Source: a virus (Duplodnaviria; Heunggongvirae; Uroviricota; Caudoviricetes). From it: a stretch of DNA of 25,515 bases. Every line of letters begins with the position of its first letter. The stretch's first letter is position 1. The DNA is taken from positions 1 through 25,515 of the IMG/VR virus record IMGVR_UViG_2609459834_000009; one strand, given 5' to 3'. Positions 4,233-11,470 of this stretch are shown piece by piece. The notes under the pieces were generated by a model, which saw only the letters and a program-made list of their open reading frames with translations, ran no database searches and was not told the DNA's origin. A program made the translations under genes and the position numbers.

Positions 4233-5086
4233 GCACCATCCTGAAATGGGCGGGAAATAAAACCGCCATTATGCCAGAACTGAAAAAATACCTTCCTGCT
4301 GGCCCGCGACTGGTTGAACCTTTCGCGGGTTCCTGTGCTGTGATGATGGAAACGGATTATCCCAGCTATCTGGTTGCGGATATTAATCCTGATTTAATCA
4401 ACCTCTATAAAAAGGTTGCCGCTGATTGTGAATCGTTTATATCTCGCGCCAGAGTTTTATTTGAGATCGCAAACAGGGAGGTGGCTTATTACAACATAAG
4501 GCAGGAGTTTAACTGCTCAACTGAAATTACTGATTTCATGAAAGCGGTATATTTCCTGTATCTTAATCGTCACGGTTACCGTGGTTTATGTCGCTATAAC
4601 AAGAGCGGGCATTTCAACATCCCCTACGGTAATTATAAAAATCCGTATTTCCCTGAAAAAGAACTTCGCACATTTGCAGAAAAAGCCCAGCGAGCAACGT
4701 TTATCTGCGCCAGCTTTGATGAAACGCTGGCGATGTTGAAGGCGGGAGATGTGGTGTATTGCGATCCGCCGTATGACGGTACGTTTTCCGGCTATCACAC
4801 TGATGGTTTCACTGAAGATGACCAGTATCACCTGGCATCCGTTCTTGAACATCGGTCATCAGAAGGACATCCAGTCATTGTTTCTAACAGTGACACATCC
4901 CTGATCCGTTCGCTGTATCGCAATTTTACTCACCACTATATCAAGGTAAAACGCAGCATCGGTGTGGCAGCTGGCGAGGGTAAATCAGCAACAGAAATCA
5001 TTGCTGTTTCCGGGCCGCGCTGCTGGATGGGATTTGATTATTCGCGTGGCGTGGATAGTTCTGCCGTGTACGGAGTACGTGCATGA
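4229..5086 (+). CDS. dam: N6-adenine DNA methyltransferase (Dam-like, D12 class)
   Basis: DPPY catalytic motif and N-terminal AdoMet-binding region ([17 protein letters not shown]); ATG at 4229 with GGAGG RBS; ORF-track start 4169 rejected. Confidence 0.85.
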
Positions 5087-7497
5087 GTCATGCCGATATG
5101 AACAACTGCTGCGGCTTTAACGAGGCTGCCGCAGCATTCTCATGGAACAGCCCGAAAAAGGCCATTAACCCTTATCTGGACCCGGCGGAAGTTGCGCCGG
5201 TTTCTACGCTTTCAAACCTGATCACTCTGTACGCTGCCGATAACGAGCAGGAACAGTTGCGCCGCGAGGCACTGAGTGATCAGGTCTGGGAGCGTTATTT
5301 CTTTAATGAATCACGTGATCCTGTCCAGCGCGAAATGGAGCAGGATAAGCTCATTAGCCGGGCAAAGCTGGCGCATGAGCAGCAGCGTTTTAATTCAGAC
5401 ATGGTCATTCTGGCGGACGTCAACGCCCAGCCTTCCCATATCAGCAAGCCGCTGATGCAACGTATTGAATACTTCAGCAGCCTGGGCAGGCCAAAGGCTT
5501 ATTCCCGCTATTTACGTGAGACGATTAAGCCATGTCTGGAACGACTGGAGCATGTACGCGACAGTCAGCTATCTGCATCTTTTCGCTTTATGGCAAGCCA
5601 TGAAGGGCTGGACGGCCTGCTGATCCTGCCTGAAATGAGTCAGGATCAGGTGAAACGCCTGTCCACCCTGGTAGCTGCGCATATGAGTATGTGCCTTGAT
5701 GCAGCTTGTGGTGATTTGTATGCCACCGATGACGTTAAGCCAGAAGAAATCCGCAAGACATGGGAAAAGGTGGCAGCGGAAACCCTGCGTCTGGATGTCA
5801 TCCCACCTGCGTTTGAGCAACTCCGTCGGAAAAGAAACCGCCGTAAACCCGTGCCCTATGAACTCATTCCGGGTTCGCTGGCGCGTATGTTGTGCGCCGA
5901 CTGGTGGTACCGGAAATTATGGAAGATGCGTTGCGAATGGCGGGAAGAGCAGTTGCGCGCTGTTTGCCTGGTCAGCAAAAAAGCATCTCCTTATGTCAGC
6001 TATGAAGCCGTGATGCATAAACGTGAGCAGCGCCGTAAGTCGCTGGAGTTTTTCCGTTCTCATGAACTGGTGAACGAAGACGGCGACACGCTGGACATGG
6101 AGGATGTGGTAAACGCCAGCAGCAGCAACCCTGCGCATCGCCGCAATGAGATGATGGCCTGTGTTAAAGGTCTGGAGCTTATCGCGGAAATGCGCGGTGA
6201 CTGCGCCGTTTTCTACACTATCACCTGTCCGTCGCGTTTCCATTCCACGCTAAATAACGGCAGACCAAACCCGACCTGGACAAACGCGACGGTAAGACAA
6301 AGCAGCGATTATCTGGTCGGCATGTTTGCTGCATTTCGTAAGGCGATGCACAAAGCCGGGTTGCGCTGGTATGGCGTGCGGGTGGCTGAGCCGCATCATG
6401 ATGGCACAGTTCACTGGCACCTGTTGTGTTTCATGCGCAAAAAAGACCGCCGTGCCATCACTGCATTACTGCGTAAGTTTGCCATCCGTGAAGACCGCGA
6501 GGAGCTGGGCAATAACACTGGGCCGCGCTTTAAGTCTGAGTTGATTAACCCGCGCAAAGGAACGCCGACAAGCTACATCGCGAAATATATCAGTAAGAAC
6601 ATTGACGGTCGTGGTCTGGCTGGCGAGATCAGCAAGGAAACGGGTAAATCTCTGCGTGATAACGCTGAATACGTGAATGCCTGGGCGTCTCTGCATCGTG
6701 TTCAGCAATTCCGCTTCTTTGGTATTCCGGGGCGTCAGGCTTACCGTGAACTTCGCTTGCTGGCTGGTCAGGCGGCAAGGCAACAGGGTGACAAAAAAGC
6801 AGGTGCGCCGGTACTGGATAACCCGCGTCTTGATGCCATTCTGGCTGCTGCTGATGCTGGTTGTTTTGCCACCTACATCATGAAGCAGAGCGGCGTACTG
6901 GTTCCCCGTAAATATCACCTCATCAGAACCGCTTATGAAATCAACGAAGAGCCGACCGCCTATGGCGATCACGGCATTCGTATTTATGGCATCTGGTCAC
7001 CCATTGCAGAGGGCAAGATCTGCACTCATGCAGTGAAGTGGAAAATGGTTCGTAAAGCCGTTGACGTTCAGGAGGCGGCAGCCGACCAGGGCGCTTGCGC
7101 CCCTTGGACTCGTGGCAATAACTGTCCCCTTGCTGAAAATTTGAACCAACAAGGGAAAGACAAATCAGCTGATGGGGATACCAGGACGGACATTACCCGC
7201 ATGGATGACAAGGAGTTGCACGATTACCTGCACAGTATGAGCAAAAAAGAGCGCCGGGAACTGGCTGCAAGGTTACGCCTGGTGAAGCCGAAACGGCGTA
7301 AAGACTACAAACAGCGAATTACAGACCATCAGCGACAGCAGCTCGTCTATGAACTGAAGTCCAGAGGATTTGATGGCAGCGAGAAAGAGGTCGATTTACT
7401 CCTTCGCGGCGGCAGTATTCCGTCAGGAGCAGGCCTGCGTATCTTCTATCGGAACCAGCGTTTGCAGGAAGATGATAAGTGGCGAAACCTGTATTAA
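5083..7497 (+). CDS. A: Replication initiation endonuclease (P2 gene A family, rolling-circle)
   Basis: 804-aa product with HUH-like motif (HWHLLCF) and YIAKYISKN active-site tyrosine region; ATGA overlap with dam stop. Confidence 0.85.
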
Positions 7498-7849: not shown

Positions 7850-8083
7850 ATGCGCATTGAAATAATGATCGATAAAGAGCAGAAGATTAGCCAGTCTACC
7901 CTGGACGCCCTTGAATCCGAGCTTTACCGCAATCTGCGCCCTATGTATCCCAAAACGGTAATTCGTATCCGCAAAGGTAGCTCTAACGGTGTAGAACTTA
8001 CCGGATTGCAACTGGACGAAGAAAGAAAACAAGTGATGAAAATTATGCAGAAGGTGTGGGAAGACGACAGCTGGCTGCATTAA
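7850..8083 (+). CDS. DinI-family protein
   Basis: 77-aa product MRIEIMIDKEQ...VWEDDSWLH with the DinI N- and C-terminal signatures (MRIE..., WE.D.W); GAGGTG RBS. Confidence 0.75.
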   Translation: MRIEIMIDKEQKISQSTLDALESELYRNLRPMYPKTVIRIRKGSSNGVELTGLQLDEERKQVMKIMQKVWEDDSWLH

Positions 8084-8218
8084 GAAACGTTGCTGGCGTC
8101 TGAACTTGTTTCTGGCGTCAGCAAGGTTGAACAACGAGCCCTTGCGAGGCGTTAGCTCTGTAGTGCATGTCTATGCCGCATGAGATCGCATGATCGTTTG
8201 AGGATCGTTTTTGCTAAG

Positions 8219-8242
8219 GCCCGCCAGAACTGGCGGGCTTTT
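8219..8242 (+). terminator. Rho-independent terminator after the SOS module
   Basis: GCCCGCCA-gaac-TGGCGGGC hairpin followed by TTTT. Confidence 0.6.
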
Positions 8243-8287
8243 GCGTAGATCATGCAGGTGCATGAAAACCACTACATAAAGCGGGCA

Positions 8288-8306
8288 GGCGTGGCGGGGA
8301 TACGAG
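8288..8306. other. cos-like motif (possible cohesive-end site)
   Basis: GGCGTGGCGGGGA resembles what I recall of P2/186 cohesive-end sequences; recollection-based and unverified. Confidence 0.3.
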
Positions 8307-8378
8307 CGCGCGCCATGTGGTATGGAGATTGGATCTATTCATAACTTGATGTATAAAGTAGAAAAAAGCGGGGAGATT

Positions 8379-9302
8379 ATGAATAAAAAATTTACCGATG
8401 AGCAGCAACAACAGCTTATAGGACATCTCACAAAGAAAGGCTTCTATCGAGGAGCTAATATTAAAATAACCATTTTTCTATGTGGTGGTGACGTTGCTAA
8501 TCATCAATCTTGGCGTCATCAATTATCACAATTTTTAGCAAAGTTCAGTGATGTTGATATATTTTATCCAGAAGATCTATTTGATGATCTTTTGGCTGGT
8601 CAAGGGCAGCATAGCCTTTTAAGTTTAGAAAATATTCTGGCTGAAGCTGTCGATGTAATAATTTTATTTCCTGAAAGTCCGGGGTCTTTCACAGAGCTTG
8701 GTGCGTTCTCTAATAATGAAAACTTAAGGAGAAAGTTGATTTGCATTCAAGATGCAAAATTTAAATCAAAACGTAGCTTTATTAACTATGGTCCTGTTCG
8801 CCTGTTGCGTAAGTTTAATTCAAAATCTGTTTTGCGTTGTAGTTCAAATGAACTAAAAGAAATGTGTGATTCATCTATTGATGTTGCCAGAAAATTACGA
8901 TTATATAAAAAATTAATGGCATCTATTAAGCAGGTTAGGAAAGAAAATAAAGTATCAAAAGATATTGGAAATATATTATACGCAGAGCGGTTTCTATTGC
9001 CTTGTATCTATTTACTGGATAGTGTCAACTACCGCACACTGTGTGAACTAGCTTTTAAAGCGATAAAGCAAGATGATGTTTTATCTAAAATTATTGTTAG
9101 ATCCGTTGTTTCTCGTCTAATAAATGAACGAAAAATACTTCAAATGACTGATGGTTATCAGGTCACTGCTTTGGGGGCTAGCTATGTTAGGAGCGTCTTT
9201 GATAGAAAGACACTTGACCGATTGCGGCTTGAGATTATGAATTTTGAAAACCGTAGAAAATCAACATTTAACTATGATAAGATTCCGTATGCGCACCCTT
9301 AG
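8379..9302 (+). CDS. Retron effector protein (putative nucleoside 2-deoxyribosyltransferase-like N-domain plus C-terminal domain)
   Basis: 308-aa ORF in AT-rich DNA immediately upstream of msr-msd; its stop codon (TAG 9300-9302) lies inside the a1 repeat. Start ambiguous (ATG at 8322, 8349 or 8379). Confidence 0.7.
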   Translation: MNKKFTDEQQQQLIGHLTKKGFYRGANIKITIFLCGGDVANHQSWRHQLSQFLAKFSDVDIFYPEDLFDDLLAGQGQHSLLSLENILAEAVDVIILFPESPGSFTELGAFSNNENLRRKLICIQDAKFKSKRSFINYGPVRLLRKFNSKSVLRCSSNELKEMCDSSIDVARKLRLYKKLMASIKQVRKENKVSKDIGNILYAERFLLPCIYLLDSVNYRTLCELAFKAIKQDDVLSKIIVRSVVSRLINERKILQMTDGYQVTALGASYVRSVFDRKTLDRLRLEIMNFENRRKSTFNYDKIPYAHP

Positions 9303-9458
9303 CGAGAGGTTTATCATTAAGGTCAACCTCTGGATGTTGTTTCGGCATCCTGCATTGAATCTGAGTTACTGTCTGTTTTCCTTGTTGGAACGGAGAGCAT
9401 CGCCTGATGCTCTCCGAGCCAACCAGGAAACCCGTTTTTTCTGACGTAAGGGTGCGCA
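9290..9458 (+). ncRNA. msr-msd: Retron msr-msd non-coding RNA (template/primer for msDNA)
   Basis: Flanked by 12-nt inverted repeats a1 TGCGCACCCTTA (9290-9301) and a2 TAAGGGTGCGCA (9447-9458); internal msr hairpin AGAGGTT/AACCTCT and long imperfect msd stem around GGAGAGCATC-gcct-GATGCTCTCC; sits directly upstream of the RT gene. Matches my recollection of the Ec86 ncRNA. Confidence 0.85.
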
Positions 9459-9464
9459 ACTTTC

Positions 9465-10427
9465 ATGAAATCCGCTGAATATTTGAACACTTTTAGATTG
9501 AGAAATCTCGGCCTACCTGTCATGAACAATTTGCATGACATGTCTAAGGCGACTCGCATATCTGTTGAAACACTTCGGTTGTTAATCTATACAGCTGATT
9601 TTCGCTATAGGATCTACACTGTAGAAAAGAAAGGCCCAGAGAAGAGAATGAGAACCATTTACCAACCTTCTCGAGAACTTAAAGCCTTACAAGGATGGGT
9701 TCTACGTAACATTTTAGATAAACTGTCGTCATCTCCTTTTTCTATTGGATTTGAAAAGCACCAATCTATTTTGAATAATGCTACCCCGCATATTGGGGCA
9801 AACTTTATACTGAATATTGATTTGGAGGATTTTTTCCCAAGTTTAACTGCTAACAAAGTTTTTGGAGTGTTCCATTCTCTTGGTTATAATCGACTAATAT
9901 CTTCAGTTTTGACAAAAATATGTTGTTATAAAAATCTGCTACCACAAGGTGCTCCATCATCACCTAAATTAGCTAATCTAATATGTTCTAAACTTGATTA
10001 TCGTATTCAGGGTTATGCAGGTAGTCGGGGCTTGATATATACGAGATATGCCGATGATCTCACCTTATCTGCACAGTCTATGAAAAAGGTTGTTAAAGCA
10101 CGTGATTTTTTATTTTCTATAATCCCAAGTGAAGGATTGGTTATTAACTCAAAAAAAACTTGTATTAGTGGGCCTCGTAGTCAGAGGAAAGTTACAGGTT
10201 TAGTTATTTCACAAGAGAAAGTTGGGATAGGTAGAGAAAAATATAAAGAAATTAGAGCAAAGATACATCATATATTTTGCGGTAAGTCTTCTGAGATAGA
10301 ACACGTTAGGGGATGGTTGTCATTTATTTTAAGTGTGGATTCAAAAAGCCATAGAAGATTAATAACTTATATTAGCAAATTAGAAAAAAAATATGGAAAG
10401 AACCCTTTAAATAAAGCGAAGACCTAA
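9465..10427 (+). CDS. ret: Retron-type reverse transcriptase
   Basis: 320-aa product with RT motifs QGAPSSPKLANL and YADD, plus the retron-characteristic VTG motif (RKVTGLVI). Confidence 0.9.
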   Translation: MKSAEYLNTFRLRNLGLPVMNNLHDMSKATRISVETLRLLIYTADFRYRIYTVEKKGPEKRMRTIYQPSRELKALQGWVLRNILDKLSSSPFSIGFEKHQSILNNATPHIGANFILNIDLEDFFPSLTANKVFGVFHSLGYNRLISSVLTKICCYKNLLPQGAPSSPKLANLICSKLDYRIQGYAGSRGLIYTRYADDLTLSAQSMKKVVKARDFLFSIIPSEGLVINSKKTCISGPRSQRKVTGLVISQEKVGIGREKYKEIRAKIHHIFCGKSSEIEHVRGWLSFILSVDSKSHRRLITYISKLEKKYGKNPLNKAKT

Positions 10428-10440
10428 TGGTCTTCGTTTT
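10417..10440. terminator. Bidirectional hairpin terminator between RT (+) and portal gene (-)
   Basis: CGAAGACC-taat-GGTCTTCG followed by TTTT on the plus strand and AAAA beyond; overlaps the RT stop codon. Confidence 0.55.
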
Positions 10441-10444
10441 AAAA

Positions 10445-11470
10445 CTAAAGCTCATAGGTTGAAAAATTGAGCACTTCTTCGTCCAACCAGTTATTTAGTT
10501 CCTGCAATCGTTTCTGCAGGGGCATCAATTCGTTTCTTACGAATACCTTGCTAGCCTTCTCCACATCCCCAAACCCCCCGACATTATTAGGCATAATTCC
10601 CATCATTTGCGGCGGCACGCGGTGTGCCGCCATCATGTCATCACGGCTCACGTTCTTGATATTCAGAAACTCATCCTTCGCTGCGACTTCTGACAACGGG
10701 ATAATCTGAAGTCCGTCTTTTTTACCATTAGGCGAGTACATAAACAGGTTGCGGAAGTTGCCAGGGCCTTTGGCACTTTTCATCGCATTGCGGAGGTTGT
10801 TCACATCTTCCTGGTTCTGCGCGGCGTCGGTCATATACATGATGAAGCCAGCATGACTGCCGTTAATGTAATACTTTCGACGGAACAGCGTGGCGGACTC
10901 ATTGAGCAGGGCGGACGGAATGGCAGAAAGATAGCCTGGCAAGCCGTAGATCTCCTGGTTAATGTCCGGTTCCATCAGATGAAAAATGCTGCCTTTCGTG
11001 AACTGATACGGCTGGGTTGTCATACCGTATTGCACAAACCAGTAGGTATCCAGGTCTAACCCGCGTCGGGTGTATTTTGCCAGTGCAGGCTCAAGGGCGA
11101 TAACTTCACCGAAGCGGTTCGTGCGTTTCTCCAGGTAGGCGTTACCAAAAACCAGATAGTCCTGCACAAAACGCGAAAAAGCCTGCTGGCTGAGCAGCGG
11201 GTGAGGGATGTAGGTGCTGGTCAGAATGTTGCACTTCACTGCAATCGGTGAGCTGTGATGCACGGCGGCGCGGAAGGTTCGCGCCAGTCCGTCGAAACTC
11301 ACAGGCGGCTCATACCAACGATCCATCTGTACGCATTCCACATAGTCCAGCAGTTCGCGGCGGTCCAGAACAGGAACGGGATCGCCAAAGCTGAATGCTT
11401 CGGCTGAAGTTTGGTTTTTATGCTGGATCTGATTCGTCGCCGCAGCGCGTTTTTTCTTACTCTTTCCCAT
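10445..11470 (-). CDS. Q: Portal protein (P2 gpQ family)
   Basis: 341-aa product co-linear with P2 Q; ATG at 11468-11470 with GGAG RBS; start overlaps terminase stop (TGATG). Confidence 0.85.
   Translation of the reverse strand: MGKSKKKRAAATNQIQHKNQTSAEAFSFGDPVPVLDRRELLDYVECVQMDRWYEPPVSFDGLARTFRAAVHHSSPIAVKCNILTSTYIPHPLLSQQAFSRFVQDYLVFGNAYLEKRTNRFGEVIALEPALAKYTRRGLDLDTYWFVQYGMTTQPYQFTKGSIFHLMEPDINQEIYGLPGYLSAIPSALLNESATLFRRKYYINGSHAGFIMYMTDAAQNQEDVNNLRNAMKSAKGPGNFRNLFMYSPNGKKDGLQIIPLSEVAAKDEFLNIKNVSRDDMMAAHRVPPQMMGIMPNNVGGFGDVEKASKVFVRNELMPLQKRLQELNNWLDEEVLNFSTYEL

Follow-up and report, generated by a model that had tools for sequence, protein, structure and literature searches.

Retron Ec86, also called Retron-Eco1, is a well-studied anti-phage retron of Escherichia coli B and BL21(DE3), represented by PDB entries 7v9u, 7v9x, 7xjg, and 8qbk. 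In the classification table, Retron-Eco1 belongs to the type II-A3 group, which is associated with an NDT-like effector (PMC7736814). The priming guanosine of its noncoding RNA (ncRNA) lies "immediately after the a1 region" in a mutation-intolerant UAGC motif (PMC11754653). According to the classical model, a promoter directly upstream of msr drives msr, msd, and the reverse transcriptase (RT) gene (PMC6868368), and a ribosome binding site within retron ncRNA has already been noted in the field (PMC10849725). Here, we analyzed a locus of this kind in a 25,515-nucleotide viral sequence (IMG/VR record IMGVR_UViG_2609459834_000009, positions 1 to 25515; the window), in which the effector coding sequence (CDS; 8379 to 9302, + strand) ends inside the ncRNA (9289 to 9458, + strand) that precedes the RT gene (9465 to 10427, + strand). 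The effector stop codon is the UAG that holds the priming guanosine, and the codons before it probably carry a promoter for the ncRNA and RT.

We identify the locus as a canonical Ec86 (Retron-Eco1) retron of type II-A3 (PMC7736814), in the order effector, ncRNA, and RT; the object is already known and represents no new kind of system. It shares with Ec86 of E. coli B and BL21(DE3) both its gene order and its site in a P2-like prophage beside the portal gene. The 2.3-kb retron unit is 99.3 to 99.4% identical to those of E. coli B, REL606, and BL21(DE3), genomes in which RefSeq labels a retron effector and an RT beside a P2-like prophage portal gene. Compared with Ec86 of BL21, the effector and RT genes each differ by one nucleotide over the CDS, whereas the ncRNA is identical to that of BL21(DE3) at 170 of 170 bases. 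The effector, a 307-amino-acid NDT-like/DNA-binding protein, matches PADLOC NDT_II-A (E = 3.6e-94) and, over residues 1 to 307, the full-length chains PDB 7v9x/7xjg/8qbk named "Retron Ec86 putative ribosyltransferase/DNA-binding protein" (E = 4e-203). A Pfam-A search of the effector returned no match; its homologs bear the precomputed family PF28093. The 320-amino-acid RT matches Pfam RVT_1 (E = 2.9e-25), PADLOC RT_II-A (E = 7.1e-128), and residues 1 to 320 of PDB 7v9u_A (E = 4.5e-214). A retron-clade RT, a structured ncRNA closed by a1/a2, and a priming guanosine 3′ of a1 are thus all present, and the effector is NDT-like with a C-terminal DNA-binding domain, as in type II-A3; these matches to Ec86 bear out the original prediction, made from the sequence alone, that the element is a retron. 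Because the ncRNA is 100% identical to that of Ec86, whose multicopy single-stranded DNA (msDNA) is solved in PDB complexes, the locus presumably produces branched msDNA.

The 170-nt ncRNA is delimited by its identity to BL21(DE3), by folding, and by covariation across 45 homologs. An inverted-repeat search located its closing arms on the + strand, a1 (TGCGCACCCTTA; 9290 to 9301) and a2 (TAAGGGTGCGCA; 9447 to 9458), which are 12 nt each, 100% complementary, and 145 nt apart. The 196 nt around a1/a2 fold at −81.5 kcal/mol (z = −6.96; 0 of 200 shuffles equally stable), with a1/a2 closing a multihairpin RNA. Since the inverted repeat is perfect over 12 nt and the fold is this unusual, a1/a2 is not due to chance, and the coordinates and pairing first proposed for the two arms hold. 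We then aligned 45 distinct type II-A3 ncRNAs drawn from genomes, metagenomes, and viral contigs. In this alignment, 91% of the cells in the a1/a2 helix were paired, and compensatory changes occurred at 10 of the 12 pairs. The observed covariation score was matched in 0 of 500 shuffles, and slid controls were 25 to 51% paired.

The effector stop codon TAG (9300 to 9302, + strand) consists of the last two bases of a1 and the priming guanosine G9302, placed by the alignment and the published motif (PMC11754653), which here reads U9300-A9301-G9302-C9303. The stop had been described as lying inside a1; it does overlap a1, but only T9300 and A9301 belong to the arm, G9302 being the unpaired priming guanosine. 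The claim that the effector CDS and the ncRNA share sequence is correct, with 14 nt in common (9289 to 9302). Across the 45 ncRNAs, the UAG (T13, A14, and G15) was invariant (45/45), and the two a1/a2 pairs that it contributes showed no variation. Because of this invariance, the UAG would act as a fixed stop for any open reading frame (ORF) arriving in that frame. Changing this stop to UAA or UGA would be expected to destroy either priming or the closing a1/a2 pairs. The a1 arm encodes the effector end, (Y)AHP, and supplies the first two stop-codon bases, TA. A C-terminal "AHP*/AHL*" was found in effectors down to approximately 42% identity, and it is merely the translation of a1.

To determine how the stop is positioned elsewhere, we gathered 84 related loci and mapped a1/a2, the priming TAG, and the two flanking gene boundaries (effector stop and RT start) in each, locating stops with the TAG as anchor and a strict in-frame stop search. 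A nonredundant set comprised 20 Ec86-like effectors, every pair below 80% amino acid identity. The stop coincided with the priming UAG in 8 of these 20. In 7 it lay 11 to 17 nt upstream, on or within the 5′ edge of a1, and in the remaining 5 it fell 7, 40, or 61 nt downstream, within msr. Loci L004, L007, and L008 are natural examples of an upstream stop, at 12 to 15 nt. In seven distant lineages (30 to 37% identity; Chloroflexota-type metagenome-assembled genomes and others), the stop was 16 to 37 nt upstream, without overlap with the UAG. Given this distribution among the 20 nonredundant effectors and their relatives, an effector 3′ end that abuts or overlaps the ncRNA 5′ end is a family trait, and a stop exactly on the UAG is the commonest state among Ec86-like effectors, yet a variable one. 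In the loci with downstream stops (L011, L013, and L015 at +61 nt; L042, L049, and L063 at +40 nt; and L040, L043, L044, and L046 at +7 nt), the effector ORF reads past the priming UAG in another frame and extends 7 to 61 nt into msr; the longest of these ORFs cross the priming G and reach the RT-recognition stem-loop.

The DNA beneath the last effector codons carries a second conserved element. The motif TGnTA[A/G]nnT (TGnTAnnnT) was present in 39 of 39 distinct Ec86-like sequences, in a fixed codon register and with its end 15 to 20 nt upstream of the priming TAG; it is missing from the distant clade. In the window, it reads TGaTAAGAT (9275 to 9283, + strand) in codons Y299-D300-K301-I302 and has the form of a sigma-70 extended −10 element, TGn followed by a hexamer with A at −11 and T at −7. 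A −35-like hexamer, TAGAAA (9254 to 9259, + strand; consensus CGTagaAa), is separated from the putative −10 by an 18-nt spacer and stands out by its codon choice. To separate nucleotide from amino acid conservation, we performed synonymous-site tests on the 20 nonredundant genes (294 codon columns), judging third positions given the residues present. Codon 300 was GNT in 20 of 20 genes while its residue varied among D, G, A, and V (p < 5e-5, top of the 294 columns), and codon 299, encoding Y, S, or C, had T as its third base in 20 of 20. At codon 301, all 17 arginines used AGR (17/17; background, 53%; p = 1.8e-5), whereas codon 292 was CGT in 19 of 20 genes and AGR in none (0/20; p = 3e-7); codon 293 used AGR for all 11 of its arginines (11/11). 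Codons 292, 300, and 299 had the three most anomalous third positions of the 294 columns. Arginine codon choice was fixed only at codons 292, 293, and 301, and nine further arginine columns were unremarkable. The constrained bases are −15T, −14G, −12T, −11A, and −7T of the extended −10, plus the T and G of the −35-like TAGAAA. We considered whether TGnTAnnnT might instead be part of an RNA helix and rejected this, since the key bases show invariance, not covariation, and correspond one by one to the sigma-70 contacts.

The motif in 39 of 39 distinct sequences and the constraint at the nucleotide level make it likely that the ncRNA and RT have their own promoter, dual coded in the effector tail, an arrangement that agrees with the classical placement directly upstream of msr (PMC6868368). 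Counting the usual 7 nt past the −10 gives a start at 9290, which places exactly the 12 nt of a1 ahead of the priming G; the predicted promoter would accordingly start the ncRNA at approximately 9289 to 9290. As RNA duplexfold over-extended a1 with spurious pairs, spacing was measured from the −10 to the priming TAG instead of to the 5′ edge of a1. The original prediction had named an independent promoter for the RT as a finding that would tell against it, and the comparative data point to one in the effector's last 16 codons.

The protein tail encoded by these codons looks dispensable. AlphaFold assigned a predicted local distance difference test (pLDDT) score below 50 to effector residues 292 to 307, with the last confident helix ending at residue 291, and these residues (9252 to 9299) are exactly those whose codons cover a1 and the −35-like and extended −10 elements. 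The tail is probably unstructured, as judged from this model, and it varies in both length and sequence among relatives. It had been claimed that the overlap constrains the evolution of both elements. RNA and DNA signals do dictate the protein tail, which seems expendable, but the constraint is mostly one-way rather than mutual, since a1/a2 covary freely and the tail is variable and predicted to be disordered.

At the other end of the ncRNA, the RT ATG lies 7 nt after a2, as predicted (six bases intervene, and its A is the seventh). ATG 9465 is the real RT start, because the PDB protein has 320 amino acids and homologs keep an in-frame ATG near a2 (within approximately 11 nt in nearly all Ec86-like relatives). 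The RefSeq/PGAP call for the BL21 Ec86 RT has 295 amino acids (L001, 7343 to 8230), starting 25 codons downstream (9540 versus 9465), and looks too short. The original prediction saw no obvious Shine-Dalgarno (SD) sequence before the RT. No strong one is present, but a weak SD-like UAAGGG (9447 to 9452) opens a2, 12 nt before the ATG. The a1 3′ half CACCCUUA (9294 to 9301) resembles the 16S rRNA 3′ end CACCUCCUUA, so that its a2 partner UAAGGGUG (9447 to 9454) is SD-like. The duplex of UAAGGG with the anti-SD is predicted at −5.0 kcal/mol, compared to −13.5 for a consensus SD, and in the folded transcript UAAGGG is 98% paired (unpaired probability, 0.02) while the AUG is approximately 56% unpaired. 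Family members hardly vary in the CCUUA/UAAGG core, and the conservation of UAAGGG is inseparable from its pairing with a1. Because the SD-like sequence is so rarely unpaired in the predicted fold, control of RT translation by the a1/a2 structure, which the original prediction had suggested, is plausible.

With respect to transcription of the locus as a whole, a terminator scan of the + strand from 8379 to 9465 found no terminator-like site between effector and RT. Effector transcripts are therefore likely to read through into the ncRNA and RT, and to this extent the proposed cotranscription of effector and ncRNA stands. Such read-through is probably neither the sole nor the main source of the ncRNA.

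Taken together, these results suggest that (i) the effector ORF would enter the ncRNA gene and end at the first in-frame stop, the invariant priming UAG; (ii) the folded part of the effector would end near residue 291, leaving the last 16 codons (approximately 9252 to 9299) as a poorly conserved, probably disordered tail; (iii) the DNA under this tail would carry the ncRNA's own sigma-70 promoter and then a1; (iv) transcription from this embedded promoter would start at approximately 9289 to 9290 and run through the RT gene to a hairpin at 10417 to 10436, while transcripts from the effector's upstream promoter would also read through, nothing stopping them; and (v) RT translation would start 6 nt past a2, at best via the weak UAAGGG, which is occluded when a1/a2 are paired. 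Every mRNA of the effector, the toxin of this toxin-antitoxin-like system, would then also encode the neutralizing ncRNA-RT, and extra transcripts of ncRNA-RT only would be made besides. We put the probability of this whole explanation, embedded promoter, read-through, and locked UAG together, at roughly 70%.

Several points weigh against it. The consensus promoter scan made no call at 9254 to 9283, where 8 of 12 hexamer positions match against a threshold of 9. The hexamer TAGAAA is weak, matching TTGACA at 4 of 6 positions at the 18-nt spacing and falling below the scan threshold, though its T and G are conserved; a −35 element can be dispensable for extended −10 promoters. Across the scan, promoter-like sites numbered 7, compared to 8.4 in shuffles, and both candidate promoters of the locus were missed; because the scan performed no better than shuffles, the promoter argument rests on comparative data. 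The p values are optimistic in that the 20 sequences are related, even with all pairs below 80% amino acid identity, and translation speed, rather than a promoter, might be the target of selection behind the rare AGR codons close to the stop. In the RT-msDNA-effector complex, the effector tail may adopt an ordered structure. Literature searches on mapping of the Ec86 promoter and transcription start site, and on a retron "internal promoter," turned up no experimental start site, and the BL21 transcriptome paper, its supplements aside, does not mention the retron. We take the commonly used Eco1 ncRNA to begin at ATGCGCACCC (A9289), a start for which a literal text search found nothing.

The strongest competing account is that of a single operon, in which the effector's upstream promoter is the only source of effector, ncRNA, and RT, all on one transcript, the ncRNA is excised from the long mRNA or folds within it, and TGnTAnnnT reflects a protein or translational constraint and not a promoter. 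With no terminator between effector and ncRNA, read-through is unavoidable, published clones carry the complete "effector-ncRNA-rrt" unit and "its native promoter," and 5′ trimming is known for some retron RNAs (Mx162; PMC6868368). However, a protein constraint fits poorly with conservation that sits at third-codon and codon-choice positions, codon 300 staying GNT while its residue varies among D, G, A, and V, in a tail predicted to be disordered; moreover, the conserved bases equal the key bases of a sigma-70 extended −10, held at 15 to 20 nt from the priming G. We therefore consider a single operon unlikely, although it deserves more weight than the two accounts that follow.

A ribosome ending at UAG 9300 to 9302 would sit on a1 and the priming G, and it could in principle melt a1/a2 and expose both UAAGGG and the RT start. 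We find such a termination-coupled switch improbable, together with its corollaries that effector translation and ncRNA priming exclude each other in cis and that RT translation is coupled to effector translation. The stop does hold the priming G, a2 contains the only SD-like sequence, which the free RNA keeps 98% paired, and in Ec86-like relatives no more than 11 nt separate a2 from the RT ATG. Nevertheless, the stop is not conserved on the UAG (−17 to +61 nt in the nearer relatives, −16 to −37 nt in the distant clade), so the switch cannot be general; a2 is also approximately 145 nt from the stop, beyond the ribosome footprint, leaving only indirect melting. Mere juxtaposition in compact prophage cargo, an ORF that happens to end in a repeat, would suit the variable position of the stop among relatives and a fixed UAG that stops one frame in three. 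It is very hard to reconcile with 20 of 20 nonredundant effectors ending at or after the −10 element, between −17 and +61 nt from the priming G without a single normal intergenic spacer, with an arrangement kept from 100% down to approximately 40% protein identity, or with nucleotide-level constraint on the overlapped DNA, and we rejected it on these three grounds. Returning to the embedded promoter, we also entertain, as a speculation that we would not expect to survive in full, that the last 16 toxin codons are mainly a coding "skin" over the neutralizer's promoter and 5′ arm, such that the toxin is never transcribed without ncRNA-RT, the neutralizer is in excess owing to the embedded promoter, the stop is locked to the UAG because its G is the priming nucleotide, and, on read-through mRNAs, ribosomes ending on that G also act in cis as a gate on how the ncRNA folds and the RT is translated.

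Beyond the arms, the ncRNA (+ strand) contains an msr stem-loop (9332 to 9350) with an 8-bp stem and a UUU loop, seen in consensus-paired alignment columns 58 to 76 with compensatory changes; this is the published RT recognition element, a role taken from a review (PMC6868368). A long msd hairpin (9377 to 9430) with 25-nt arms, 88% complementary, was found by repeat search and folding. Four nucleotides past this hairpin and before a2, a T6 run (9435 to 9440; msd region, 9377 to 9440) has a terminator-like look and received no call in the scan; termination there would give an RNA without a2. An Rfam scan of 8000 to 10600 at a permissive E value returned no retron family, and its sole match was a chance microRNA on the msd hairpin.

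Signals flanking the unit were largely read from the sequence. Upstream, a terminator-like hairpin (GCCCGCCAGAACTGGCGGGC, then TTTT; 8219 to 8243, + strand), not called by the scan, appears to close the preceding prophage gene and insulate the retron unit. A candidate effector promoter, TTGGAT and TATAAA with a 17-nt spacer (8329 to 8357, + strand), was likewise not called. The true effector start is ATG 8379, with the SD sequence GGGGAG 5 nt before it. The mechanical ORF call extends from 8322 to 9302 (326 amino acids) because of a 2-nt deletion, relative to BL21, in an A-run near 8361 in the effector 5′ untranslated region, which brings the upstream ATG 8322 in frame; the stop codon and its ncRNA context show no difference from BL21 Ec86. 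Downstream, the hairpin at 10417 to 10436 (CGAAGACC-TAAT-GGTCTTCG), common to the converging RT and portal genes and called by the scan on the − strand, is likely a bidirectional terminator ending the retron unit.

The whole window (1 to 25515) is a P2-like prophage, apparently intact, with the retron in a cargo slot directly before the portal gene. Its gene order runs from an integrase (1 to 1209, − strand) through an 804-amino-acid replication endonuclease (gpA; 5083 to 7497) to portal, terminase, capsid, and tail genes.

Two observations concern the promoter-like element in other loci. In an Aeromonas fluvialis locus (L021, 2501 to 3600), the effector has a premature TAA approximately 125 codons in and is likely a pseudogene; ncRNA, RT start, and promoter-like motif all persist at the locus despite the broken effector. 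Five distant II-A3 loci (L017, L019, L056, L059, and L060) lack the TGn motif and carry A/T-rich −10-like hexamers (e.g., TATATT and TATAAAAT) a few nucleotides 5′ of a1, either inside the effector 3′ end or immediately past it, which suggests the same logic of a promoter abutting a1 in other phyla.

Ec86/Eco1 is the reference retron both for the mechanism of phage defense and for genome editing, and its ncRNA and RT are routinely cut from their native context. Because the effector stop is the priming UAG, a promoter probably lies in the last 16 codons, and an SD-like sequence lies in a2, the native components would not be independently editable. C-terminal tags on or truncations of the effector, extensions of a1/a2, and codon optimization of the effector would each be expected to alter ncRNA or RT expression. 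The arrangement also offers a testable explanation for neutralizer excess in a toxin-antitoxin-like system.

Set against its closest counterpart, the window differs in its surroundings: its prophage looks intact, with a full-length gpA of 804 amino acids, whereas the BL21 copy is decayed, with gpA and CII pseudogenes. Other type II-A3 retrons (Retron-Vch3/Vc137 and uncharacterized members in Pectobacterium, Serratia, Vibrio, Photobacterium, Rheinheimera, and Advenella) have the same effector-ncRNA-RT order, the invariant UAG, covarying a1/a2, TGnTAnnnT in the last effector codons, and an RT start just past a2, but only approximately 40% of nonredundant lineages stop at the UAG. Distant members of the type (Chloroflexota-type, 30 to 37% identity) differ in having neither the UAG overlap nor the TGn motif. 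As in the classical retron cassette, the inferred promoter is directly upstream of msr and would drive msr-msd-RT (PMC6868368). Unlike in that cassette, the region upstream of msr here is the 3′ end of the toxin gene, and the putative promoter and a1 are dual coded with protein. Promoters inside upstream coding sequences are familiar, and some toxin-antitoxin operons have internal promoters that provide the neutralizer in excess of the toxin. The retron would follow the same extra-promoter logic, with the differences that the "antitoxin" is an RT plus an RNA-DNA hybrid and that the embedded promoter is read from conservation only. An embedded promoter and a locked UAG may be details not previously set out, but they are consistent with what is established about retrons.

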